A stretch of 64,000 bases of DNA from Escherichia coli (GCF_030013595.1 NZ_CP122771.1), one strand, 5' to 3'. Numbered from the stretch's first letter, positions 12,889 through 62,779 are shown. Program-made: numbers and translations. The notes: generated from the letters alone by a model not told the origin.

Positions 12889-13149
12889 TCATATGATAAA
12901 CCATACCGCAATCCAGTGGCTTCTGAATAGCTCGCAAAAATAAATATAGATAATTGAAAATAACCATAATACAACGATGCCTGCTGCGATACTTAATAAA
13001 CTTATTACAAGATAGTCAGGGAAGGCATTGACCGGTAATGAATGTGATGCTGCATATATCAGCGCAATAATTGCCGCATTTCCCAGTAACGACTCTCTTA
13101 TTATGTTTCTGATTATTTCCAGTTTTTCTTTAAAAGATCGCTTTTCCAT
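12889..13149 (-). CDS. artA: ArtA-like membrane protein, antisense within tra operon
   Basis: 86-aa minus-strand ORF between trbA and traQ, the position artA occupies in F; AT-rich. Confidence 0.5.
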   Translation of the reverse strand: MEKRSFKEKLEIIRNIIRESLLGNAAIIALIYAASHSLPVNAFPDYLVISLLSIAAGIVVLWLFSIIYIYFCELFRSHWIAVWFII

Positions 13150-13229
13150 TTGTACCTCTGATTAATATCACACAAACGCGAATATTACAGACATGAATAC
13201 TCTCATGTAAATAATAACCGGAGTTTAAC

Positions 13230-18890: not shown

Positions 18891-19376
18891 ATGATAATGA
18901 GATGTTTAACCCATATTGCTCTGGTAGCGGTGATACAGTTTATCGCCTGTTATCTGGCTGGTTGGGAGAATGCCGAAACAATTTTTATGCTGTTCTTCAT
19001 AGTACTATGGCAGGGACTGTTTATATGGTTGTTCTCTCAAATACGAAAAAAACGGAATGTGTCGGATGAGTTTAAGTTTAGTAAAGGCGTTTGGTATATA
19101 ACGATGCCAGTATCTTCCTTACTCTCTCCATTATTAAGCCTGATGGTTTTTATCATTGGTACACTATACGAATTAAGGCGAGTTAGTGGTTGTGTAAGTG
19201 TAAGAGAATGGATGCAATCTCAGGTAAATGAACAAACTAATGAAGATTTGCATCTGGATTTTGATAATATGGATTTTCATCGTACTAATCCTGCAACAGG
19301 ATTACCTATGTCAGGTATTGGTGTGGATATCGGTGGTAATTCATATGGTTATTGTTCAAAACGATATGATGAGTGA
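18891..19376 (+). CDS. traS: TraS, entry exclusion inner-membrane protein
   Basis: 161-aa hydrophobic AT-rich ORF between traG and traT; assigned by position. Confidence 0.65.
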   Translation: MIMRCLTHIALVAVIQFIACYLAGWENAETIFMLFFIVLWQGLFIWLFSQIRKKRNVSDEFKFSKGVWYITMPVSSLLSPLLSLMVFIIGTLYELRRVSGCVSVREWMQSQVNEQTNEDLHLDFDNMDFHRTNPATGLPMSGIGVDIGGNSYGYCSKRYDE

Positions 19377-19424
19377 ATCTTAATTTGTATATTATGACGT
19401 TTTATTCAATATGAAGGAACATTG

Positions 19425-20156
19425 ATGAAAATGAAAAAATTGATGATGGTTGCACTGGTCAGTTCCACTCTGGCCCTTTCAGGGTGTGGTGCGATGAGCA
19501 CAGCAATCAAGAAGCGTAACCTTGAGGTGAAGACTCAGATGAGTGAGACCATCTGGCTTGAACCCGCCAGCGAACGCACGGTATTTCTGCAGATCAAAAA
19601 CACGTCTGATAAAGACATGAGTGGGCTGCAGGGCAAAATTGCTGATGCTGTGAAAGCAAAAGGATATCAGGTGGTGACTTCTCCGGATAAAGCCTACTAC
19701 TGGATTCAGGCGAATGTGCTGAAGGCCGATAAGATGGATCTGCGGGAATCTCAGGGATGGCTGAACCGTGGTTATGAAGGCGCAGCAGTTGGTGCAGCGT
19801 TAGGTGCCGGTATCACCGGATATAATTCCAGTTCTGCCGGTGCCACACTCGGTGTGGGCCTTGCTGCCGGTCTGGTGGGTATGGCTGCAGATGCGATGGT
19901 GGAAGATGTGAACTATACCATGATCACGGATGTGCAGATTGCAGAGCGTACTAAGGCAACGGTGACAACGGATAATGTTGCCGCCCTGCGTCAGGGCACA
20001 TCAGGTGCGAAAATTCAGACCAGTACTGAAACAGGTAACCAGCATAAATACCAGACCCGTGTGGTCTCAAATGCGAACAAGGTTAACCTGAAATTTGAAG
20101 AGGCGAAGCCTGTTCTCGAAGACCAGCTGGCCAAATCAATCGCAAATATTCTCTGA
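19425..20156 (+). CDS. traT: TraT, surface exclusion/serum-resistance lipoprotein
   Basis: Lipobox LALSGCGAM; matches F TraT. Confidence 0.9.
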
Positions 20157-20252: not shown

Positions 20253-20358
20253 CCCGGCGTTTCCGAAATAAATATGAAAACACTGAGCGGTTGTGCAAAT
20301 TCTTTGTGCGACCGTGAAGTGTTGCCGGCGAAGCCGGGATCTTCCGGAGAAAGTCATT

Positions 20359-21096
20359 ATGACATCAGACAATATCGCTGAATATGTTGGTGAGAATAAT
20401 CAATTTACTGAGAAGCCTGTAACTGAATACCCCCCGGTGATACAGGATAATACAGTGACCACTAAAGACTATCTGTACAGCAATAATATTGATACTGACC
20501 TTTTAGTGGTTATCGGAGGGCTTATTGTTATATTGTTTCTCATGATGCTTATCATGTACTTTATTAATTCTCTCAGGCATAAGGAATTAACTGAAATACT
20601 GACAAAAATATCTTTTCCTGAAAAATCCGGGAGCAATTCGCTTAAACCGGAAGCGGTCAGCTGTAATTTGTTGTCCCTGTGTGTGCTGGCACCGGTATTC
20701 TTTACACCCAGAAAGCTGGCTGAAGTTTCCAGGGAGATCATCGTGGCGAGTGCGCAGGAAATTGCATGGACGCCGGGGAGCAGTCGTATTGATGGCCACC
20801 AGGCGGAGAATATCACCTGGGCGATTTCATCGCAGTCTCCTGCCGATAAGTATGATCTCATCAATAAAACCTCCCGTGTTTCTCCTGACAGTGGCCGTTT
20901 TTATGAACCGGACACAGTTCTGGATCACCGTGAACGGGTACGCCTTTTTATTCAGATCCAGTTTCCGCATGGGAGTGACTGGTCTGAAGTATTGCGCCTG
21001 ACTGACATTGTTACAGAGAAGGTCTCTTCCGGCAGGGCTGCAGGCGGGTATCACCACCGACATACAGGGTACACCTGGTCTGTTTCTGTGAATTAA
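20359..21096 (+). CDS. Hypothetical membrane-anchored protein inserted between traT and traD
   Basis: 246 aa from ATG 20359 with one TM helix ([22 protein letters not shown]); GGAG-type RBS; not part of canonical F gene order. Confidence 0.4.
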
Positions 21097-21146: not shown

Positions 21147-23372
21147 ATGAGTTTTAACGCAAAGGATATGACCCAGGGCGGTCAGATTGCGTCCATGCGT
21201 ATCCGCATGTTCAGCCAGATCGCCAATATCATGCTTTACTGCCTGTTTATTTTTTTCTGGATACTCGTTGGTCTGATTTTATGGGTAAAAATAAGCTGGC
21301 AGACGTTTGTGAACGGCTGTATTTACTGGTGGTGTACCACGCTGGAAGGCATGCGGGATTTAATCAAGTCCCAGCCAGTATATGAGATCCAGTATTACGG
21401 CAAAACCTTCCGGATGAACGCGGCTCAGGTACTGCATGATAAATACATGATCTGGTGCGGTGAGCAGCTATGGTCCGCATTCGTTCTGGCGTCTGTCGTG
21501 GCCCTGGTTATTTGCCTGATTACCTTCTTTGTTGTTTCCTGGATTCTGGGGCGTCAGGGTAAACAACAGAGCGAAAATGAAGTCACAGGTGGTCGTCAGC
21601 TGACAGACAATCCGAAAGATGTTGCCCGGATGCTGAAAAAAGACGGCAAGGACTCCGATATCCGGATTGGCGACCTGCCGATTATCCGAGATTCCGAAAT
21701 CCAGAACTTCTGTCTGCACGGCACAGTCGGGGCCGGTAAGTCGGAGGTTATCCGTCGTCTGGCCAACTACGCCCGTAAGCGTGGTGATATGGTGGTGATT
21801 TATGACCGTTCAGGGGAATTTGTTAAAAGTTACTATGATCCCTCCATCGATAAAATCCTGAATCCGCTGGATGCCCGCTGTGCCGCATGGGATTTGTGGA
21901 AGGAGTGCCTGACACAGCCGGATTTTGATAATACCGCGAACACGCTGATCCCTATGGGTACAAAAGAGGACCCGTTCTGGCAGGGGTCAGGACGTACCAT
22001 TTTTGCGGAAGCGGCGTACCTGATGCGTAATGACCCCAACCGCAGCTACAGCAAACTGGTGGACACACTGCTTTCCATCAAAATCGAAAAACTGCGTACC
22101 TTCCTGCGTAATTCACCGGCAGCCAACCTGGTGGAAGAGAAAATTGAGAAAACGGCGATTTCCATCCGTGCTGTGCTGACCAACTACGTGAAAGCCATCC
22201 GTTACCTGCAGGGGATTGAGCATAACGGTGAGTCTTTTACCATCCGTGACTGGATGCGTGGTGTCCGGGAAGATCAGAAAAACGGCTGGCTGTTTATCTC
22301 GTCGAATGCCGACACCCATGCCTCCCTGAAGCCGGTGATCTCCATGTGGCTGTCCATTGCCATTCGTGGTCTGCTGGCAATGGGAGAAAACCGTAATCGT
22401 CGTGTGTGGTTTTTCTGTGACGAGTTACCCACGTTACACAAACTGCCGGACCTGGTGGAGATCCTGCCGGAAGCCCGTAAGTTCGGTGGCTGTTATGTGT
22501 TTGGTATCCAGTCCTATGCCCAGCTGGAAGATATCTACGGTGAGAAAGCGGCGGCCACGCTGTTTGACGTCATGAACACCCGTGCCTTTTTCCGTTCTCC
22601 CAGCCATAAGATTGCAGAGTTCGCTGCCGGTGAAATTGGTGAGAAAGAGCACCTGAAAGCCAGCGAGCAGTATTCCTACGGTGCTGACCCGGTACGTGAC
22701 GGGGTATCGACCGGTAAGGATATGGAGCGTCAGACGCTGGTCAGTTATTCCGACATTCAGTCTCTGCCGGATCTGACCTGTTATGTCACTCTGCCCGGAC
22801 CGTATCCGGCAGTCAAACTCTCTCTGAAATATCAGGCACGTCCGAAGGTTGCCCCGGAGTTTATTCCGCGTGACATCAACCCGGAAATGGAGAACCGTCT
22901 GAGTGCCGTACTTGCCGCAAGGGAAGCAGAAGGTCGCCAGATGGCCAGCCTCTTCGAACCGGAGGTTGCCTCCGGAGAAGGCGTGACTCAGGCTGAACAG
23001 CCACAACAGCCACAACAGCCACAACAGCCACAACAGCCACAACAGCCACAACAGCCACAACAGCCACAACAGCCACAACAGCCACAACAGCCAGTGTCTT
23101 CTGTCATCAATGATAAGAAGTCAGATGCAGGTGTGAGTGTTCCGGCAGGGGGGATCGAGCAGGAGCTGAAAATGAAACCGGAAGAAGAGATGGAACAGCA
23201 ACTGCCACCCGGGATCAGTGAATCCGGTGAAGTGGTGGATATGGCCGCTTATGAGGCATGGCAACAGGAAAATCATCCGGACATCCAGCAGCATATGCAG
23301 CGTCGTGAAGAGGTGAACATTAATGTACACCGGGAGCGCGGGGAGGATGTTGAGCCGGGAGATGATTTCTGA
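21147..23372 (+). CDS. traD: TraD, type IV coupling protein
   Basis: 741 aa; N-terminal TM helices; Walker [10 protein letters not shown]; C-terminal QQP repeat tract. Confidence 0.95.
22998..23093 (+). repeat. 9-bp tandem repeat (cagccacaa, about 10 units) encoding the (QPQ)n tract of TraD
   Basis: Direct reading of the sequence. Confidence 0.9.
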
Positions 23373-26300
23373 TGTTGAGTTTCAGCGTTGTTAAATCGGC
23401 AGGCAGTGCCGGAAACTATTACACCGACAAGGATAATTACTATGTGCTGGGCAGCATGGGAGAACGCTGGGCTGGTCAGGGGGCTGAACAGCTTGGGCTG
23501 CAGGGCAGCGTCGATAAGGATGTTTTTACCCGTCTTCTGGAGGGCAGGCTGCCGGACGGAGCGGATTTAAGCCGCATGCAGGATGGCAGTAATAAGCATC
23601 GTCCCGGCTACGACCTGACCTTCTCCGCCCCCAAAAGTGTCTCCATGATGGCCATGCTCGGGGGGGATAAACGTCTTATTGATGCACATAACCAGGCCGT
23701 GGATTTTGCTGTCCGTCAGGTGGAGGCGCTGGCTTCCACACGGGTGATGACGGACGGACAGTCAGAAACGGTGCTGACCGGTAATCTGGTGATGGCACTG
23801 TTTAACCATGACACCAGTCGCGATCAGGACCCACAGTTACACACGCATGTGGTGGTGGCTAATGTCACGCAGCATAATGGCGAGTGGAAGACACTGAGCA
23901 GTGACAAAGTGGGGAAAACCGGATTTTCCGAGAACGTGCTCGCGAACCGGATTGCGTTCGGGAAAATATATCAGAGTGAGTTACGTCAGCGCGTTGAGGC
24001 GCTGGGTTATGAAACCGAAGTGGTCGGTAAGCACGGTATGTGGGAGATGCCGGGCGTACCGGTGGAGGCCTTTTCCAGTCGTTCACAGGCTATCAGGGAG
24101 GCCGTCGGTGAAGACGCCTCGCTGAAATCCCGGGATGTGGCGGCGCTGGATACGCGTAAATCCAAACAGCACGTCGATCCGGAAATCAGAATGGCTGAAT
24201 GGATGCAGACGCTGAAGGAAACCGGGTTCGACATCCGGGCATATCGTGACGCGGCGGATCAGCGTGCGGAGATCCGCACGCTGACGCCCGGGCCTGCTTC
24301 ACAGGACGGGCCGGATGTGCAGCAGGCGGTGACACAGGCGATTGCCGGATTAAGTGAACGAAAAGTGCAGTTCACGTACACGGACGTGCTGGCCAGAACG
24401 GTCGGCATACTGCCGCCGGAAAATGGTGTGATTGAACGGGCACGCGCCGGTATCGATGAGGCCATCAGCCGTGAGCAGCTTATCCCCCTCGACCGTGAGA
24501 AGGGGCTGTTCACGTCCGGGATTCATGTGCTCGATGAGCTGTCAGTCCGGGCACTCAGTCGTGACATCATGAAACAGAACCGGGTGACCGTACATCCGGA
24601 GAAAAGTGTTCCCCGGACGGCCGGTTACAGCGATGCCGTCAGCGTGCTGGCACAGGATCGCCCGTCGCTGGCCATTGTGTCCGGGCAGGGCGGTGCAGCC
24701 GGGCAGCGTGAGCGGGTGGCTGAACTGGTCATGATGGCCCGGGAGCAGGGGCGGGAGGTGCAGATTATCGCTGCTGACCGTCGCTCGCAGATGAACATGA
24801 AGCAGGATGAGCGTCTGTCCGGTGAGCTGATAACCGGGCGGCGTCAGCTGCTGGAGGGCATGACCTTCACGCCGGGCAGTACCGTTATCGTCGACCAGGG
24901 CGAAAAACTCTCCCTGAAAGAGACGTTAACTCTGCTGGACGGTGCCGCACGGCATAACGTACAGGTCCTGATAATCGACAGCGGGCAGCGGACCGGTACC
25001 GGCAGTGCGCTGATGGCCATGAAGGATGCCGGAGTGAACACATATCGCTGGCAGGGGGGAGAACAGCGACCGGCAACCATCATCAGTGAACCGGACCGTA
25101 ATGTCCGCTATGCCCGGCTGGCCGGAGATTTTGCGGTCAGCGTGAAAGCCGGAGAAGAGAGCGTGGCGCAGGTCAGTGGAGTACGGGAACAGGCCATGCT
25201 GACTCAGACCATTCGCAGTGAGCTGAAAACACAGGGCGTACTCGGACATCCGGAGGTGACCATGACCGCGCTGTCACCGGTCTGGCTGGACAGCCGGAGT
25301 CGTTATCTGCGGGATATGTACCGCCCGGGGATGGTGATGGAGCAGTGGAACCCGGAGACACGCAGTCATGACCGCTATGTGATAGACCGGGTGACGGCGC
25401 AGAGTCACAGCCTGACCCTGCGGGATGCGCAGGGCGAAACGCAGGTGGTGCGTATTTCCTCCCTGGACAGCAGCTGGTCGCTGTTCCGGCCGGAAAAAAT
25501 GCCGGTGGCAGACGGCGAGCGACTGAGGGTGACCGGGAAAATTCCCGGACTCCGAGTCTCCGGCGGTGACCGCCTGCAGGTGGCATCCGTCAGTGAAGAT
25601 GTGATGACGGTTGTTGTGCCGGGGCGGGCTGAACCGGCCTCCCTGCCTGTGAGCGATTCACCGTTCACGGCACTGAAGCTGGAGAATGGCTGGGTGGAAA
25701 CGCCCGGGCATTCCGTCAGCGACAGTGCGAAGGTTTTTGCCTCCGTCACACAGATGGCAATGGACAAGGCCACCCTGAACGGTCTGGCCCGCAGTGGTCG
25801 TGATGTCCGGCTGTATTCCTCACTGGATGAAACCCGTACTGCGGAAAAACTTGCCCGCCATCCGTCCTTTACGGTGGTTTCTGAGCAGATAAAGGCGCGG
25901 GCCGGTGAGACATCGCTGGAAACGGCTATCAGTCATCAGAAGTCCGCACTTAACACACCGGCACAGCAGGCCATTCATCTTGCCCTTCCGGTGGTGGAAA
26001 GTAAAAACCTGGCCTTCAGCCATGTGGACCTGCTGACAGAGGCAAAGTCGTTTGCTGCAGAAGGAACCAGTTTTGCTGACCTGGGGCGGGAAATCAATGC
26101 GCAGATAAAACGCGGTGACTTACTGTATGTGGATGTGGCAAAAGGCTATGGCACAGGCCTGCTGGTTTCCCGTGCGTCGTATGAGGCAGAAAAGAGCATT
26201 CTTCGCCATATTCTCGAAGGTAAGGAGGCGGTCACGCCGCTGATGGAGAGAGTACCTGGCGAACTCATGGAGAAACTGACATCAGGACAGCGTGCCGCCA

Positions 26301-28642
26301 CCCGCATGATACTGGAAACGTCCGACCGTTTCACGGTGGTGCAGGGCTATGCCGGTGTGGGTAAGACCACACAGTTCCGGGCGGTGATGTCAGCCGTGAA
26401 CATGCTGCCGGAGAGTGAGCGTCCCCGTGTCGTTGGGCTGGGCCCCACGCACCGTGCGGTCGGGGAGATGCGCAGCGCCGGCGTGGATGCACAGACACTG
26501 GCGTCCTTTCTGCATGACACGCAGCTGCAGCAGCGCAGCGGAGAAACGCCGGATTTCAGCAACACGCTGTTTCTGCTCGATGAGAGCTCAATGGTGGGCA
26601 ATACCGACATGGCACGGGCATACGCCCTGATTGCGGCCGGTGGTGGTCGTGCCGTGGCCAGCGGTGACACGGACCAGCTGCAGGCCATCGCGCCCGGTCA
26701 GCCTTTCCGTCTCCAGCAGACGCGCAGTGCTGCCGATGTGGTCATCATGAAGGAGATTGTGCGCCAGACGCCGGAGCTGCGGGAGGCGGTATACAGCCTG
26801 ATTAACCGGGATGTGGAAAGGGCACTGTCCGGGCTTGAGAGTGTGAAACCGTCTCAGGTGCCACGTCAGGAGGGCGCATGGGTACCGGAGCACTCCGTGA
26901 CGGAGTTCAGTCACAGCCAGGAAGCGAAACTGGCAGAAGCGCAGCAGAAGGCGATGCTGAAAGGTGAGGCTTTTCCGGATATTCCCATGACACTGTATGA
27001 AGCCATTGTCCGCGATTATACCGGCAGGACGCCGGAAGCACGGGAGCAGACGCTGATTGTCACGCATCTGAATGAGGACCGGCGCGTACTGAACAGCATG
27101 ATTCATGATGCACGGGAAAAGGCCGGTGAGCTGGGAAAAGAGCAGGTCATGGTGCCTGTCCTGAACACAGCGAATATACGCGACGGGGAGTTGCGTCGTC
27201 TCTCCACCTGGGAGACACATCGGGACGCACTTGCCCTGGTGGATAATGTGTATCACCGGATTGCCGGTATCAGCAAGGATGACGGGCTGATAACTCTGCA
27301 GGATGCGGAAGGTAACACGCGGCTGATTTCGCCCCGGGAGGCGGTGGCTGAAGGCGTCACACTGTACACTCCGGACACCATCCGGGTGGGAACCGGTGAC
27401 CGGATGCGCTTCACGAAGAGTGACCGGGAGCGCGGTTATGTGGCCAACAGCGTCTGGACGGTGACAGCGGTTTCCGGTGACAGTGTCACGCTGTCGGACG
27501 GACAGCAGACCCGGGTGATTCGCCCCGCCCAGGAGCAGGCAGAGCAACATATTGACCTGGCCTATGCCATCACCGCCCACGGTGCGCAGGGGGCGAGTGA
27601 AACCTTTGCCATTGCGCTTGAAGGCACGGAAGGTAACCGGAAACTGATGGCCGGCTTTGAGTCAGCCTACGTGGCCCTGTCGCGTATGAAGCAGCATGTG
27701 CAGGTGTACACCGATAATCGTCAGGGCTGGACGGATGCCATTAACAATGCCGTACAGAAAGGAACTGCCCACGATGTGCTGGAGCCGAAACCGGACCGGG
27801 AGGTCATGAATGCAGAGCGGCTGTTCAGTACGGCGCGGGAGCTGCGGGACGTGGCGGCAGGGCGTGCCGTTCTTCGTCAGGCGGGGCTTGCCGGGGGAGA
27901 CAGTCCTGCACGGTTTATTGCACCGGGACGTAAATATCCACAGCCGTATGTGGCACTGCCGGCGTTTGACCGTAACGGCAAATCAGCCGGTATCTGGCTG
28001 AACCCGCTGACCTCGGATGACGGAAACGGGCTGCGGGGATTCAGCGGTGAAGGCCGTGTGAAAGGCAGCGGGGATGCGCAGTTCGTGGCCCTGCAGGGCA
28101 GCCGTAACGGAGAAAGCCTGCTGGCTGATAATATGCAGGAGGGTGTCCGGATTGCCCGTGATAATCCTGACAGCGGTGTGGTGGTAAGAATCGCCGGTGA
28201 AGGCCGTCCGTGGAATCCCGGTGCCATCACCGGTGGCCGCGTGTGGGGGGATATCCCGGACAACAGCGTCCAGCCGGGAGCCGGAAATGGCGAGCCGGTC
28301 ACGGCAGAGGTACTGGCACAGCGGCAGGCTGAAGAGGCCATCCGCCGTGAAACGGAACGCCGTGCGGATGAAATTGTCCGTAAAATGGCAGAGAACAAAC
28401 CTGACCTGCCGGATGGCAAAACAGAGCAGGCTGTCAGGGAGATTGCCGGGCAGGAGCGTGACCGGGCTGCCATAACTGAACGGGAAGCCGCGCTGCCGGA
28501 GAGTGTGCTGCGTGAATCACAACGGGAGCGGGAAGCGGTCCGGGAGGTTGCCCGGGAAAATCTGCTGCAGGAGCGTCTGCAGCAGATGGAGCGGGATATG
28601 GTTCGTGACCTGCAGAAAGAGAAAACCCTGGGCGGAGACTGA
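23372..28642 (+). CDS. traI: TraI, relaxase/DNA helicase I
   Basis: 1756 aa; N-terminal relaxase with HxH motif (HTHVV) and C-terminal helicase with P-loop (GYAGVGKTT). Confidence 0.95.
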   Translation: MLSFSVVKSAGSAGNYYTDKDNYYVLGSMGERWAGQGAEQLGLQGSVDKDVFTRLLEGRLPDGADLSRMQDGSNKHRPGYDLTFSAPKSVSMMAMLGGDKRLIDAHNQAVDFAVRQVEALASTRVMTDGQSETVLTGNLVMALFNHDTSRDQDPQLHTHVVVANVTQHNGEWKTLSSDKVGKTGFSENVLANRIAFGKIYQSELRQRVEALGYETEVVGKHGMWEMPGVPVEAFSSRSQAIREAVGEDASLKSRDVAALDTRKSKQHVDPEIRMAEWMQTLKETGFDIRAYRDAADQRAEIRTLTPGPASQDGPDVQQAVTQAIAGLSERKVQFTYTDVLARTVGILPPENGVIERARAGIDEAISREQLIPLDREKGLFTSGIHVLDELSVRALSRDIMKQNRVTVHPEKSVPRTAGYSDAVSVLAQDRPSLAIVSGQGGAAGQRERVAELVMMAREQGREVQIIAADRRSQMNMKQDERLSGELITGRRQLLEGMTFTPGSTVIVDQGEKLSLKETLTLLDGAARHNVQVLIIDSGQRTGTGSALMAMKDAGVNTYRWQGGEQRPATIISEPDRNVRYARLAGDFAVSVKAGEESVAQVSGVREQAMLTQTIRSELKTQGVLGHPEVTMTALSPVWLDSRSRYLRDMYRPGMVMEQWNPETRSHDRYVIDRVTAQSHSLTLRDAQGETQVVRISSLDSSWSLFRPEKMPVADGERLRVTGKIPGLRVSGGDRLQVASVSEDVMTVVVPGRAEPASLPVSDSPFTALKLENGWVETPGHSVSDSAKVFASVTQMAMDKATLNGLARSGRDVRLYSSLDETRTAEKLARHPSFTVVSEQIKARAGETSLETAISHQKSALNTPAQQAIHLALPVVESKNLAFSHVDLLTEAKSFAAEGTSFADLGREINAQIKRGDLLYVDVAKGYGTGLLVSRASYEAEKSILRHILEGKEAVTPLMERVPGELMEKLTSGQRAATRMILETSDRFTVVQGYAGVGKTTQFRAVMSAVNMLPESERPRVVGLGPTHRAVGEMRSAGVDAQTLASFLHDTQLQQRSGETPDFSNTLFLLDESSMVGNTDMARAYALIAAGGGRAVASGDTDQLQAIAPGQPFRLQQTRSAADVVIMKEIVRQTPELREAVYSLINRDVERALSGLESVKPSQVPRQEGAWVPEHSVTEFSHSQEAKLAEAQQKAMLKGEAFPDIPMTLYEAIVRDYTGRTPEAREQTLIVTHLNEDRRVLNSMIHDAREKAGELGKEQVMVPVLNTANIRDGELRRLSTWETHRDALALVDNVYHRIAGISKDDGLITLQDAEGNTRLISPREAVAEGVTLYTPDTIRVGTGDRMRFTKSDRERGYVANSVWTVTAVSGDSVTLSDGQQTRVIRPAQEQAEQHIDLAYAITAHGAQGASETFAIALEGTEGNRKLMAGFESAYVALSRMKQHVQVYTDNRQGWTDAINNAVQKGTAHDVLEPKPDREVMNAERLFSTARELRDVAAGRAVLRQAGLAGGDSPARFIAPGRKYPQPYVALPAFDRNGKSAGIWLNPLTSDDGNGLRGFSGEGRVKGSGDAQFVALQGSRNGESLLADNMQEGVRIARDNPDSGVVVRIAGEGRPWNPGAITGGRVWGDIPDNSVQPGAGNGEPVTAEVLAQRQAEEAIRRETERRADEIVRKMAENKPDLPDGKTEQAVREIAGQERDRAAITEREAALPESVLRESQREREAVREVARENLLQERLQQMERDMVRDLQKEKTLGGD

Positions 28643-36356: not shown

Positions 36357-37280
36357 ATGACGATTGAAAGCTTTTTTATTGGCACCCGCCGCTCTGATAA
36401 ACGTTACGGGCCTCAGAGCAAGGATATGCAGGTTTCTGAATTCATTTCTCTGATTTCTCCCCAAAATGCCCCTCATAAGGTTGTGTTACCTGATTTTACT
36501 GGTCTGGCAATTCAGCTTGATGCACAAATCAGGAACCAGTTTCATCAACTGAAAGAGGATGAGCACTTCCTTCGATATCGGCAGTTGTCGGAAAGGTGGT
36601 ATCAGGCGGACTCTATTAGTGACAGAAACAACCGCAGTAAGCGTTTTGAGAAGATCATGGATGACTCACTTGATTTTTTGCTTTACAGCCAAGACGTCAT
36701 GCCTAACATCAATCCAGATGATCTCCAATGGCATGATTACGAAAAGGCTAGCAGTAAGGGTAAAATGTACTGTGTAGCGCTTCTGTTCCATGTCATTGCA
36801 CGGGCTGCATATGAACCCGAATCTGTGGGTAAAGATCCGACACTTCCAGAATATTGCCGGTGGATGAAAAATTGGATAGAGAAAACATTAGGTCATGATT
36901 TTTTAGATAGAATGATGATCTATTGTGCGCTGTTTGCCCCAGCGTATTTTCCCGCGTTACAACGTCTGAGCGGAGAGAAAGAAACGCGTGATGTCCATGA
37001 ATTCCTGGCTGAGCATGTTCGCACTTTAGCTCAAAAAAATTCTTCAGAGGTAAATTATAGAGATCAACGGCAATTCACGTTTGGCTACACCATGTTCACG
37101 AAGCAACAATTTGAATTTCTGGGCATGATGCGCGATGTCCATTACCGGATTGATTGTATTGAACAGCTCCTTCTGGACCTTATAGAACGTAAGGTTGTGG
37201 ATTTCACTGATGCATCTGTTGCAGGCACGTGGATTGAGAAGCAAATTCAGCGGCTTGAATCAAACGACGTAAAGCAGTAA
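36357..37280 (+). CDS. Hypothetical 307-aa protein
   Basis: Long ORF with plausible RBS; followed by hairpin 37321-37345; no motif recognised. Confidence 0.45.
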   Translation: MTIESFFIGTRRSDKRYGPQSKDMQVSEFISLISPQNAPHKVVLPDFTGLAIQLDAQIRNQFHQLKEDEHFLRYRQLSERWYQADSISDRNNRSKRFEKIMDDSLDFLLYSQDVMPNINPDDLQWHDYEKASSKGKMYCVALLFHVIARAAYEPESVGKDPTLPEYCRWMKNWIEKTLGHDFLDRMMIYCALFAPAYFPALQRLSGEKETRDVHEFLAEHVRTLAQKNSSEVNYRDQRQFTFGYTMFTKQQFEFLGMMRDVHYRIDCIEQLLLDLIERKVVDFTDASVAGTWIEKQIQRLESNDVKQ

Positions 37281-37371
37281 CCCTCTGAACTGTAAATTGG
37301 GTAGTCAGATTTAATTATTGGCACCTGTTCATAGGTGCCACCTTTCTGAAAGAATGTATCCTAATTTTTCG

Positions 37372-37890
37372 ATATCCAAACTGACCCCTATTTTAGATGT
37401 TTCATTTATCACACCCTAAAGCTGAATATTTATCACAAGCCATTTTTACCGATAAATAACTAAGGCGATCAATGCCAATGGACTTACAATAATAAACAGA
37501 TTCTTTTTTGCTATTCAGGTTCGTAACACGGGGTCTGAAGTCCAATGGAACGAAAACGTACGTTAGTGAAGTAACTGTATGATATATCAAGACATAATGG
37601 ACATAGAAAAACGCCATCAAAACGGTGTCTTTTTAATCGAAAATTGGCACTTAACGGACGGCATTGTCTACTAATCGATTTTTAGACGATAATTTTCCTC
37701 TTACCGTACATTTTCGTACGGTTGGCCCTCAAACCCCGATTTGAACTCAATCGGATAACCTGAATGCAATACCGCAATGGCGATAATTTAAAAGCGATAG
37801 CCGTTGACGCAAAATCAATCCGTTACGCATCTCTATTGGTTAAATAATGCGCTTAACGTACAAAATTTTCCCATATCCAAACTGACCCCT
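37372..37890. repeat. 18-bp direct repeats atatccaaactgacccct (37372-37389 and 37873-37890) bracketing about 500 bp of non-coding DNA
   Basis: Exact repeat read from sequence; internal palindrome accgtacattttcgtacggt. Confidence 0.6.
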
Positions 37891-37899
37891 TAAAGGACA

Positions 37900-38235
37900 T
37901 CAACACGCATTCGGCGTTTTTTCTTGTCCAATTGTGATTTTCGTGAGCTCCGTATCAGTGAAATTTCCCTTTCCTGATTCTGTGTCAAAGTCACCAGGTT
38001 TGAACCGGTGTACATCCTGCCATATAGAGAAACAGGTGTGGCAGGTGACAGGCAGTTCTCCATCAGCCACCTTTTCGCAGTTTTCAATCAGTACCCGTTC
38101 CTTATTGTATTGTAAGTTATAACCACTTGTGCAAAGCGTTTCATACCCGTGAGCGCCTGTCACGATATGTGTGGCAATCCGTTCCCTGACTTTTCCGTTC
38201 ACTAATAACTGTTCACGTGTGGTGATCGTTCGCAT
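37900..38235 (-). CDS. Hypothetical small Cys-containing protein
   Basis: Minus-strand ORF with AGGAAG RBS before second ATG; contains CHTC; coding status uncertain. Confidence 0.3.
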   Translation of the reverse strand: MRTITTREQLLVNGKVRERIATHIVTGAHGYETLCTSGYNLQYNKERVLIENCEKVADGELPVTCHTCFSIWQDVHRFKPGDFDTESGKGNFTDTELTKITIGQEKTPNAC

Positions 38236-38329
38236 TCTCTTCCTCATCAGCTTTCCTGTAGAAGCCTCCTGACTATAAGGCTCCGGATATCTTACCCGCT
38301 CATTTTGGCTGGAGGTAGTGGTGGCGTCA

Positions 38330-38560
38330 GAGGATGAATTACTGACATTGTATATGAAGCTTTGAGTTTTTTCTGGATTTCATCAGTGTTTATCTTTATT
38401 TGTTCTTGTTTGTTCTCTTTTGTGCTGTTGGAGTCGGTTTTTGTCTGTGTTTTTCTTTATTTTTCCATTTGTGGCCGATATCAGGTCTTTACCGATACGT
38501 TGTTTTAGGTGATAATCGTTTTTGATCTCGTATTTTTCTAAAAAAATCCATTTTATTTAT
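38330..38560. promoter_or_regulatory. Putative parC-like centromere/promoter region
   Basis: AT-rich region with short reiterated motifs directly upstream of stbA. Confidence 0.3.
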
Positions 38561-38572
38561 GTGAGGTTCTAG

Positions 38573-39553
38573 ATGCGTATCTTTGTAGACGACGGCTCTA
38601 CCAACATCAAACTGGCCTGGGTTGAAGACGGTGCAGTGAAAACGTTAATTAGTCCGAATAGTTTTAAGCCGGAATGGTCTATGACGCTGCAGGGACTGAC
38701 TGATGCCACTGTACCCGCTTCCGCAAACTATGAGATTGATGGAGAAAAATACAGCTTTGATCAATTGAGTCCGGATGCAGTGCGCACCACAGAAACGCGT
38801 TATCAGTACAGCGACGTTAATGTGGTTGCTATTCATCATGCGTTGATGCAGTCAGGTATTGCTCCACAACCTGTTGATATTGTTGTGACTTTACCTTTAG
38901 GTGAGTATCTGGATGAGAACGATCAGCCAAATCTGGCTAATATCGAACGTAAGAAAAATAATGTCCGGCGAACTGTAACAGTTCAGGGGCGTGAAAACTT
39001 TACCATTCGTAAAGTCAGTGTCTTGCCTGAGTCCGTGCCTGCCGGTTTTGACGTGCTGAAAGATCTGAATGATCTGGAGTCGCTGTTGATTGTTGATATC
39101 GGTGGAACGACCCTTGATATTGCACATGTCCGCAGCAAAATGTCAGGTTTCACAAAAACCTATTGTGACCCCAAGACTGGCGTCTCCATCATTACTGAAG
39201 CAGTTAAGCATGCGATGGATGTGAATGTGAGTACACGAACCAGTTCTTATTTTGCAGATCGTCTAATCCAGGGCCGGGATGACAATGAATTCCTGACCCG
39301 TTATATCCCGAATGCAGAACAGCGTGAGCGGATCCTGACAGTATTACGTGACCGGGAAAAAAAACTGCAGCATCGTGTGGCGGATTCAGTAGGACGCTTT
39401 GCTGGTTTTACTCATGTTATGGTTGTTGGCGGTGGTGCCAGCCTTGTGGCTGGGGCAGTAAAAAAAGCGACAGGAGTGGGTGATAACCGTTTCTTTGTCA
39501 GTGACAATCCTCAGTTCGATCTGGTGTTGGGAATGATGGCAATGAAGGGATGA
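38573..39553 (+). CDS. stbA: StbA/ParM actin-like partition ATPase
   Basis: 326 aa; MRIFVDDGSTNIKLAW, DIGGTTLD and VVGGGA motifs as in R1 ParM. Confidence 0.9.
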   Translation: MRIFVDDGSTNIKLAWVEDGAVKTLISPNSFKPEWSMTLQGLTDATVPASANYEIDGEKYSFDQLSPDAVRTTETRYQYSDVNVVAIHHALMQSGIAPQPVDIVVTLPLGEYLDENDQPNLANIERKKNNVRRTVTVQGRENFTIRKVSVLPESVPAGFDVLKDLNDLESLLIVDIGGTTLDIAHVRSKMSGFTKTYCDPKTGVSIITEAVKHAMDVNVSTRTSSYFADRLIQGRDDNEFLTRYIPNAEQRERILTVLRDREKKLQHRVADSVGRFAGFTHVMVVGGGASLVAGAVKKATGVGDNRFFVSDNPQFDLVLGMMAMKG

Positions 39554-39978
39554 GTATGGCTGATAATCGTAAGTGCTCTTTTTATATTTATCCGGAACGA
39601 AATGCAGCTGATCGGGTGGCTGACAGGTTTCTTGAAAAATTGCCTCAGAAAGAACGTGGTCGGGCAATGCGGGCCATGATGTTGTGTGGTGCTGCATTGA
39701 TGAAGCAGGATGAACGATTGCCGTTCCTGATAGCTGAATTCCTGACAGACAGCACGTCTATGCAGGATATTCAACGAATTATCAGTAGTACGCTACCACA
39801 ACAGGAAAATGGTGAAGTCGTTCGTTTGCTGGAGGCATTTCTGCAGTCTGCTGGTAATAATGCAAAAGCGATCCTGCCTGCGGTTGATTCTGCTACGCAA
39901 GAAATATCTGCTCCAGTCGATCAGAATCTCCTGGAAACAAGAAACAACATTAAGAACTTGTTTCCGGATGATGAATAA
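39550..39978 (+). CDS. stbB: StbB/ParR partition adaptor
   Basis: 142 aa overlapping stbA stop; similar organisation to R1 ParR. Confidence 0.8.
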   Translation: MSMADNRKCSFYIYPERNAADRVADRFLEKLPQKERGRAMRAMMLCGAALMKQDERLPFLIAEFLTDSTSMQDIQRIISSTLPQQENGEVVRLLEAFLQSAGNNAKAILPAVDSATQEISAPVDQNLLETRNNIKNLFPDDE

Positions 39979-40014
39979 GAACTGAACTCTGTTAAAGGAC
40001 GCTGTTGCGTCCTT

Positions 40015-48649: not shown

Positions 48650-48830
48650 AGACGCCGGGCAGGCGGGAGGATAAATGCCTGTCTGTCCGCGCCGGGAAAA
48701 GACCGCGCGCCGGTGGCGCTGAAAGGGGCCGCGCTGACGCGCCGCCCCTTTCATTACGCGGACGTTCTGACGGGGGCTTCTGTCTTTTCAGACCTGTCAT
48801 TTGCCTGTTACTGATGATGTTGTTGTTCCT

Positions 48831-48866
48831 GCTACTGCTACTGCTACTGCTACTGCTACTGCTACT
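48831..48866. repeat. Hexanucleotide microsatellite (gctact)x6
   Basis: Direct reading; related (gtt)x5 run at 45523-45542 in the equivalent position before Frpo-like copy 1. Confidence 0.85.
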
Positions 48867-49011
48867 GTTCTTCTTTTTTCTGATGCTCTCATTACTGTCT
48901 GTTTTGTTGTTCTCCTGCTTATGCCTTTTCCGGGCGTCCCCCTGGCGGGGCGGGCTGTCGTGAACGGAGCCAGCGAAGCTGTCTCCGCCCTGGCGGGCTT
49001 CCATCCCTGAC

Positions 49012-62395: not shown

Positions 62396-62779
62396 ATGGC
62401 CAGAGTAATTTTGTATATCAGTAATGATGTCTATGACAAAGTAAATGCGATAGTTGAACAGCGTCGTCAGGAGGGGGCAAGAGATAAAGATATAAGTGTT
62501 TCGGGAACAGCTTCAATGCTTCTTGAACTGGGGCTTCGCGTACATCAGGCTCAGATGGAGCGTAAAGAGTCTGCATTTAATCAGACTGAGTTTAATAAAT
62601 TACTTCTTGAATGTGTTGTAAAAACACAGTCATCAGTAGCGAAAATTTTGGGTATTGAGTCTCTAAGTCCCCATGTCTCCGGGAATCCAAAGTTTGAATA
62701 TGCCAATATGGTTGAAGATATTCGTGAGAAGGTGTCATCTGAGATGGAACGATTTTTTCCAAAAAATGATGAGGAATAA
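62396..62779 (+). CDS. traM: TraM, relaxosome accessory protein
   Basis: 127 aa starting MARVILYISNDVYDKVNAIVEQRRQEGA. Confidence 0.9.
   Translation: MARVILYISNDVYDKVNAIVEQRRQEGARDKDISVSGTASMLLELGLRVHQAQMERKESAFNQTEFNKLLLECVVKTQSSVAKILGIESLSPHVSGNPKFEYANMVEDIREKVSSEMERFFPKNDEE

Follow-up and report, generated by a model that had tools for sequence, protein, structure and literature searches.

Results

The traD gene and its surroundings

The analysed DNA, hereafter the window, was a stretch of 64,000 nucleotides from Escherichia coli (GCF_030013595.1, NZ_CP122771.1), in which a tandem repeat with a period of 9 bp was found inside a transfer gene. The features that bear on this repeat were the following:

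21147..23372 (+): traD, F-type type IV coupling protein, 741 aa (PRK13700, TIGR02759, TraD_N, TrwB_AAD_bind)
21627..22865 (+): folded nucleotide-binding / all-alpha domain, TraD residues 161-573 (TrwB homology)
22866..23369 (+): TraD C-terminal extension, residues 574-741, which holds the repeat (no PDB homology; AlphaFold2)
22998..23093 (+): coding variable-number tandem repeat (VNTR), (CAGCCACAA)x10 + CAGCCA, encoding (QPQ)10QP (perfect period of 9; copy number polymorphic in relatives)
23325..23369 (+): last 15 TraD residues, the C15 or TraM-recognition tail, ...EDVEPGDDF (identity to F-type fragments)
23372..28642 (+): traI, relaxase/helicase, 1756 aa (Pfam TrwC relaxase, TraI_2B, AAA_30, TraI_C)
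62396..62779 (+): traM, relaxosome protein, 127 aa (PDB matches)

The 741-aa open reading frame is the F-type TraD type IV coupling protein. The NCBIfam model PRK13700 matched it over residues 1-741 with 1672 bits (cut-off 1221), TIGR02759 matched it with 834 bits (cut-off 521), and the Pfam domains TraD_N and TrwB_AAD_bind were found at residues 32-128 and 172-561, respectively. Moreover, thousands of the plasmids matching the traD query described below annotate the gene as traD. The context was that of an F-like tra operon in the order traT - traD - traI: TraS, identified with Pfam (18891-19376), and the TraT open reading frame (19422-20156) precede traD, the start of traI overlaps the traD stop directly downstream, and a sibling record annotates the operon from traB through traX.

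To locate the repeat within the protein, the structural homology of TraD was considered together with a predicted model. A phmmer search against the PDB aligned residues 161-573 to TrwB (1E9R/1GL6, E = 3e-47), the alignment ending there, and no PDB homology was returned past residue 573. Since the homology to TrwB stops at this point, the repeat sits in the C-terminal extension (residues 574-741), which has been described as unstructured (PMC3245843, PMC10939261). AlphaFold2 was run on residues 560-741 with a shallow alignment of 9 sequences and reached a mean pLDDT of 59.6. One helix was modelled with confidence at 579-603 and another two at 699-723. Confidence in the tail was low, and residues from about 610 to 679, including the Q/P tract, appeared as coil devoid of secondary structure, with block-mean pLDDT values of 36-49. 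On this model, the Q/P tract is predicted to lie within an intrinsically disordered linker of TraD.

At the distal end of the extension, the tail of the window TraD was identical to that of the F-type TraD fragments P0001-P0003 and was nearly invariant in the protein alignment A1. Regarding its partner, residues 58-127 of the window TraM (the tetramerisation domain) were identical at 68 of 70 positions to the F TraM chain (PDB 2G7O/3D8A), and residues 2-54 matched the TraM N-terminal domain in 4QPO. An acidic tail with a terminal aromatic residue was thus found together with a cognate TraM, a combination that places the window TraD in the F specificity group.

Position, unit and frame of the array

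Direct reading and a regular-expression count located ten full CAGCCACAA units at 22998..23087 of the + strand, followed by a partial CAGCCA that ends at 23093, and perfect 9-periodicity extended over 98 bp (22996..23093). The same interval was reported by Tandem Repeats Finder, with head-to-tail units of period 9, 10.9 copies, 100% matches, 0 indels and a score of 196. Along the whole + strand of the 64-kb window CAGCCACAA occurred 13 times, 10 of them inside the array, which excludes a chance arrangement. The array is in frame within the 741-aa open reading frame, and its product, (QPQ)10QP, corresponds to TraD residues 618-649. A first-pass annotation had described about ten perfect copies of this unit, at these coordinates, as the C-terminal (QPQ)n tract of TraD. 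Direct reading, the regular-expression count, Tandem Repeats Finder and the family models confirmed its coordinates, unit, copy number and gene, and the in-frame translation together with the TraD family matches bore out the nature of the product.

A second perfect repeat was observed elsewhere in the window (48829-48867); the length of that region varies, not in 6-bp steps, and there are two or three occurrences per plasmid.

Copy number across plasmids and genomes

A query of 673 bp across the tract was searched in PLSDB and in the complete E. coli genomes. This traD 3′ query matched 3983 PLSDB plasmids, and the region was present in 2803 of the 5426 complete E. coli genomes (3213 records). 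For the closest matches, those whose flanks were identical at 99.5% or more, spans of 628 to 781 bp were obtained, compared with the 673 bp of the query. Two evenly spaced samples taken down the whole ranking comprised 57 full-length rows from PLSDB and 58 from the E. coli records, and 114 of the 115 span differences were exact multiples of 9. The lone exception was the record CP121348.1, which is almost without annotation. Spans were converted into units with a correction for the CCG lineage, which carries a separate 9-bp insertion (Asp-Val-Pro, DVP) upstream of the tract. The calibrated copy numbers ranged from 1 to 27 (median 7) in the plasmid sample and from 1 to 22 (median 6) in the E. 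coli sample, the records being phylogenetically non-independent and the lineage used for each span-based estimate being set by an identity cut-off calibrated on only 8 fetched loci. The distribution had its mode at one unit (F type), no cases at two and few at three to four; above these, it formed a wide hump between 5 and 13 units and then a long tail.

Exact counts were obtained for 20 arrays, which contained from 1 to 27 units and were all 100% pure. The CCA-type arrays had 1, 1, 3, 8, 9, 10 (window), 21, 22 and 27 units, the CCG-type arrays of the E. coli group (unit CAGCCGCAA) had 1, 3, 5, 9, 11, 13 and 19, and the Salmonella plasmid arrays had about 1, 7 and 10, with arrays longer than about 150 bp resting on long-read assemblies. 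The flanks GTGACTCAGGCTGAA and GTGTCT were conserved as the copy number changed, and the traD frame was kept in all 20 arrays examined. The tract is accordingly a VNTR, with a copy number that differs among related isolates between conserved flanks. The comparison across isolates had been proposed in the first-pass annotation, for which an invariant repeat number among related plasmids would have spoken against an effect on transfer; with 1 to 27 units, invariance did not hold.

A protein search with the 170-aa C-terminal fragment in a database of 5.8 billion proteins was dominated by low-complexity words and returned mostly partial fragments. Hundreds of these partial TraD fragments start at or just after the tract, which indicates that short-read assemblies often break there.

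Recent changes and probable traces of slippage

Changes of one and two units were found between close relatives. Over 20 kb, the closest backbone, CP122741.1 (from a pig ETEC in Belgium), differed from the window by exactly one unit and by eight other small sites. Moreover, the plasmids pAVS0282-A (146,635 bp) and pAVS0283-A (146,617 bp), which come from the same wastewater study, have lengths 18 bp apart, and their differences over the 40.6 kb around traD consisted of the loss of two units (a single deletion of 18 bp) from the array and of three SNPs, including one 4 bp past it.

The codons of the tract differed from those used in the remainder of the gene: the rest of traD contains CCG 22 times versus CCA twice and CAG 30 times versus CAA three times, and the tract uses CCA and CAA. 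Furthermore, both synonymous unit alleles (CCA and CCG) were found in short and in long arrays. Taken together, the rare codons and the occurrence of both alleles at short and long lengths suggest that each array was amplified from a single founder unit, and the latter points to independent expansions in different lineages. The purity of all the arrays argues for a turnover much faster than point mutation, and the gap at two units together with the mode at one is compatible with a length threshold for slippage. From these patterns we infer replication slippage as the mutational mechanism. The earlier description of the tract as slippage-prone therefore agrees well with a VNTR of 1 to 27 copies that changes in 9-bp steps and differs by one or two units between sister plasmids.

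The same locus in Salmonella

In Salmonella, a 9-bp VNTR with 5 to 19 copies has been described in traD (PSLT104) on pSLT, a virulence plasmid of S. Typhimurium (Hiley et al. 2019, PLoS One, PMC6459517). The range was obtained by sizing PCR fragments from 220 isolates; the VNTR is missing from one clade, the pSLT genotypes have characteristic copy-number ranges (Table 1 therein), and the authors use the VNTR as evidence for vertical inheritance (PMC6459517). The sequences retrieved here agreed with a repeat at that position. In pSLT of strain LT2, AACAGCCGC was repeated 10.8 times with 100% identity, coding for ...AQAE(QPQ)nQP..., and a plasmid of S. Newport had 7.8 copies, the units of these two plasmids being AACAGCCGC and AACAGCCAC. 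In contrast to these arrays, pSLT of strain 14028S had QPQQPQP only.

In the protein alignment, the arrays of LT2 pSLT and S. Newport aligned column for column with the tract of the window. The pSLT and E. coli (QQP) arrays lie after ...QAE and before a ...DKKS segment and share period and frame, and the Salmonella C-terminal regions of alignment A1 were 71-77% identical to that of the window. Judged from the aligned sequences, the two arrays were verified to occupy a homologous site. The pSLT array is thus like that of the window in its period of 9, its frame and its site in TraD, and its unit differs by one synonymous base (CCG, versus CCA in the window), an allele also present in E. coli plasmids; work on the pSLT locus has employed it for typing and for tracing lineages, and its function has not been the subject of study. 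The published forward primer for the pSLT VNTR had no match in the window because the flanks are too diverged. In more distant TraD proteins, a short and imperfect patch rich in Q/P or P/A was found at the position of the tract. Across these proteins, a Q/P seed appears to be conserved in position and would turn into a VNTR wherever the DNA is a perfect direct repeat.

Discussion

Relation to previous work

The tract corresponds to the 'QQP motif' noted in the TraD C-terminal extension of F-like plasmids, with QPQQP in F and 23 residues in R1 (Lang et al. 2011, Mol Microbiol 82:1071, PMC3245843, Discussion and Fig. 8). Those authors speculated that its variation underlies plasmid-specific differences and reflects phage-driven diversification (PMC3245843). 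Compared with F and R1, the window differs only in copy number and in the CCA allele of the unit, and the protein and the site are shared. The lengths follow the rule of 3n+2 residues, with n=1 in F, n=7 in R1 and n=10 (32 residues) in the window. The paper on the traD sequence of R100 (Yoshioka et al. 1990, J Mol Biol) reportedly describes about ten Gln-Gln-Pro repeats as well.

Regarding the contact of TraD with the relaxosome, a groove on the tetramerisation domain of TraM accommodates the TraD tail. Each such contact is weak on its own, and it has been proposed that binding relies on avidity, with several tails of one hexamer of TraD engaging several tetramers of TraM at oriT, aided by flexibility (PMC3159463). 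In F, the last 15 residues of TraD stimulate cognate transfer by 10^4-5-fold, the remaining 148-residue unstructured C-terminal domain (CTD) adds only ~10^1-1.5-fold (about 10-30-fold), and a deletion of the CTD still transfers (Kishida et al. 2024, PMC10939261). The assumption in the first-pass annotation that the TraD C-terminus contacts the relaxosome is accordingly upheld, the contact being made via TraM according to these studies (PMC3159463, PMC10939261), and the window carries an F-type TraM. No experiment varying only the length of the repeat was found in the literature searched, in which the only deletions reported are those of the whole CTD and of C15. The sequence feature, its variability and the hypothesis of tuning are all already in print (Lang 2011; Hiley 2019).

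An in-frame VNTR in a probably length-tolerant spacer

We prefer the explanation, with a probability of about 0.8, that the array is a coding VNTR which changes in frame by slippage within a disordered linker, where (QPQ)n would act as a passive spacer whose length is broadly tolerated. The 9-bp unit (three codons, Gln-Pro-Gln) would expand and contract by replication slippage and, because 9 is divisible by three, TraD stays intact through every such event and only the length of the spacer changes. The tract, flexible or extended, would join the membrane-anchored ATPase ring (up to about residue 573, plus the helix at 579-603) to the distal helices at 699-723 and to the tail, which would dock onto TraM tetramers bound at oriT. 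This spacer has 5 residues at n=1, 32 in the window and 83 at n=27, for which simple per-residue estimates give contour lengths of ~2 nm, 10-12 nm and 26-30 nm, respectively.

If the length is broadly tolerated, the locus would drift fast and only a modest effect on transfer would be expected. Such tolerance is supported by the fact that F works with a single unit, by the limited contribution of the CTD without C15 (~10^1-1.5-fold) and by the drift of the pSLT array in lineages judged to be vertically inherited. Both the role as a spacer and the near-neutrality of the repeat length are what we infer from these observations. Against this explanation stand the non-flat distribution of copy numbers and the ranges characteristic of the pSLT genotypes: they fit a slippage threshold plus shared ancestry, but such a pattern could equally result from stabilising selection on length.

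Alternative explanations

An adaptive reading starts from the idea of tuning, which the first-pass annotation put forward for the specificity or efficiency of transfer and which is also that of Lang et al. 2011. In this reading, the number of repeats would determine how far the tether reaches or how stiff it is and, in this way, the efficiency with which the TraD hexamer captures TraM-bound oriT, the exclusion of non-cognate substrates or the susceptibility of the host to TraD-dependent RNA phages such as R17, with slippage supplying heritable variation for selection. The tract does lie between the ATPase and the TraM-binding tail, and both the weak binding of a single tail to TraM, with the proposed reliance on avidity and flexibility (PMC3159463), and the blocking of heterologous substrate recruitment by the C15 tail and the CTD (PMC10939261) speak in its favour. 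However, F is fully proficient in conjugation with one unit, and the whole CTD minus C15 accounts for only about 10-30-fold. F and R1 differ in their R17 requirements as well as in QQP length, for which phage-driven diversification was suggested (PMC3245843), but they also differ at many other positions. Similarly, an optimal length would be in keeping with the hump at 5-13 units and with the ranges specific to genotypes (PMC6459517), but pSLT lineages judged not to transfer horizontally vary in copy number too, and near-identical sister plasmids differ, which suggests drift. Overall, this reading was considered rather unlikely, and a functional tuning of transfer by the number of repeats is probably overstated.

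A related proposal, quite improbable in our judgement, is that the Q/P VNTR serves as a plasmid-borne evolvability device, with in-frame slippage keeping a standing mix of tether lengths. Selection would then shift this mix among the efficiency of self-transfer, the permissiveness to mobilisable or non-cognate substrates and the resistance to TraD-dependent RNA phages such as R17 or MS2. Such shifts would account for the ranges specific to lineages and for the hump at 5-13 units.

It was also considered highly improbable that the array is an element acting at the level of DNA or RNA, namely a protein-binding array, an internal promoter of traI, an antisense gene or an mRNA structure for traD-traI coupling. 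The nucleotides of the array are perfectly conserved within each plasmid, the array lies 280 bp upstream of traI, and an antisense open reading frame of 217 aa (starting MWLLWLL) exists. Yet promoter- and terminator-like sites were at shuffle level and none were found inside the array, and the RNA and DNA folds were no better than those of shuffled sequences (z-scores of -0.25 and -0.5). Moreover, two unit alleles and a range of 1 to 27 copies would hardly be expected of a defined binding array. The reading frame was never broken, and plasmids whose flanks have diverged still encode the same amino-acid motif. The antisense open reading frames over the repeat were rejected as genes, being reverse readings of it. 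In the one at 22434..23087 (-), the repeat read as its reverse complement supplies the N-terminus; this frame falls within traD, itself a well-supported gene, and there is no excess of promoters or terminators.

Finally, differences in copy number could arise from the mis-assembly of a low-complexity tract, given that short-read assemblies often break there (the hundreds of partial TraD fragments), that long arrays exceed the typical length of short reads, and that the length difference of the poorly annotated CP121348.1 is not a multiple of 9. Such an artefact is hardly credible as a general explanation, since 114 of the 115 differences were multiples of 9 and all the arrays were pure, which random long-read error would not yield; PCR sizing also gave 5-19 repeats in 220 isolates at the homologous pSLT site (PMC6459517), and a difference between F and R1 was already present in sequences from the Sanger era (PMC3245843). 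Furthermore, the array of the window, with 98 bp, is well under read length.

Likenesses to other systems

In the contingency loci of Neisseria, Haemophilus and Campylobacter, coding tandem repeats change their copy number at high rates by slipped-strand mispairing. The units of those loci, of 1-5 or 7 bp, shift the frame and turn the gene on or off, whereas the 9-bp unit of traD stays always in frame and TraD is always made; the traD array is therefore a case of length variation, not of phase variation. A phase-variation switch was rejected on the same grounds, as a 9-bp unit cannot shift the frame, the 20 arrays were in frame and neither the array nor its immediate surroundings held a promoter.

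A proline-rich, non-globular link between a membrane anchor and a distal binding part is also found in TonB, another envelope-energy protein, in the form of (Glu-Pro)n/(Lys-Pro)n, and it can be shortened at little cost to function in standard conditions. However, TonB and TraD are unrelated proteins that share no homology, and the TonB region is not a VNTR at the DNA level, which makes this likeness an analogy alone.

Significance

In practice, the tract offers a convenient marker of high resolution with which to follow the lineages of IncF and pSLT plasmids. It is also a frequent breakpoint of short-read assemblies, which leads to many truncated 'partial TraD' entries, and the small differences in annotated traD length that come from the tract are not to be read as functional divergence. 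The finding would weigh more if the length of the tether alters the efficiency of conjugation, the selectivity for substrates or the sensitivity to male-specific phages. In E. coli, resistance and virulence genes are carried chiefly on IncF plasmids and, with the traD region present in 2803 of the 5426 complete genomes, a fast-mutating modulator of transfer, if true, would be epidemiologically relevant.

Small changes flanking the traD array

To begin with, the two sister plasmids pAVS0282-A (L010) and pAVS0283-A (L011) were compared over 40.6 kb, in which only three SNPs were found. One of these, GTGTCT to GTGACT at position 20335 of L010 with respect to L011, lies 4 bp downstream of the 9-bp array of traD and co-occurs with the two-unit array deletion separating both plasmids. 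Its occurrence beside the array may be due to chance, to an artefact of polishing, or to error-prone repair tied to the slippage event. Moreover, the lineage carrying the CCG-type unit presented three additional codons upstream of the tract (the segment reads LFEPDVPEVVSGEDV in that lineage), which the window lacks, placed as follows:

About 40 bp before the array, equivalent to window ~22950-22975: three extra codons of CCG-type plasmids (e.g. the loci L013-L016)

This difference constitutes a separate 9-bp indel within the same disordered linker as the array and, therefore, unit counts based solely on the length of the gene are wrong by one unit.

The traT-traD gap and other differences from CP122741.1

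The gap of about 1 kb between traT and traD is occupied by a single reading frame:

20293-21096, + strand: ORF of 267 aa

No match was obtained for this ORF in a Pfam search. In the sibling plasmid CP122741.1, no protein is listed at its place, and the locus tags leave out one number there, suggestive of a pseudogene call. Within the region of this ORF, the window and that plasmid also differ by a 1-bp indel (20689-20690). Furthermore, an ISEc23 insertion in pAVS0283-A splits a homologous 'hypothetical protein'. The 267-aa ORF may be a decaying accessory gene.

CP122741.1, otherwise nearly identical, also harbours an ISEc23 (IS66-family) element in the region 37504-39921. From the comparison of the window ORF list with CP122741.1, this copy appears to be absent from window ~37000-40000, as an ORF of the size of ParM is found there (38573-39553) instead of the insertion sequence. 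A further small ORF was annotated in CP122741.1, whose presumed place in the window was assigned by correspondence with that annotation:

12903-13151 of CP122741.1 (window ~12900-13150), opposite strand: 'toxin ArtA', in the tra operon, with trbA and traQ on either side

A second tandem repeat in the leading region

Another perfect tandem repeat was located in the leading region:

48829-48867: CTGCTA x 6.5, flanked by a SAM-dependent methyltransferase ORF on one side and ssb on the other

Its location is comparable to that of the pSLT MLVA marker STTR10pl, sited between PSLT064 and ssbB (PMC6459517). The length of this region differed among related plasmids (spans of 370-411 vs. 400), among which clean 6-bp length steps were not found, and the 400 bp around the repeat appeared in two or three copies per plasmid.

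Annotation and assembly at the traD repeat

Two ORFs antisense to the array were rejected as genes, being mechanical by-products of the repeat read backwards, although an ORF caller might list them:

22434-23087, - strand: reverse-strand reading of the traD repeat
22876-23085, - strand: reverse-strand reading of the traD repeat

Finally, the protein-database search with the 170-aa TraD C-terminal fragment returned hundreds of 'partial' TraD entries of ~94-106 aa (P0010, P0014, P0017 and P0019, among others), beginning within the Q/P tract or just beyond it, with member counts of 438 (P0019), 304 (P0014) and 247 (P0017). Evidently, short-read assemblies break at the traD repeat and, therefore, draft genomes often have a truncated traD.
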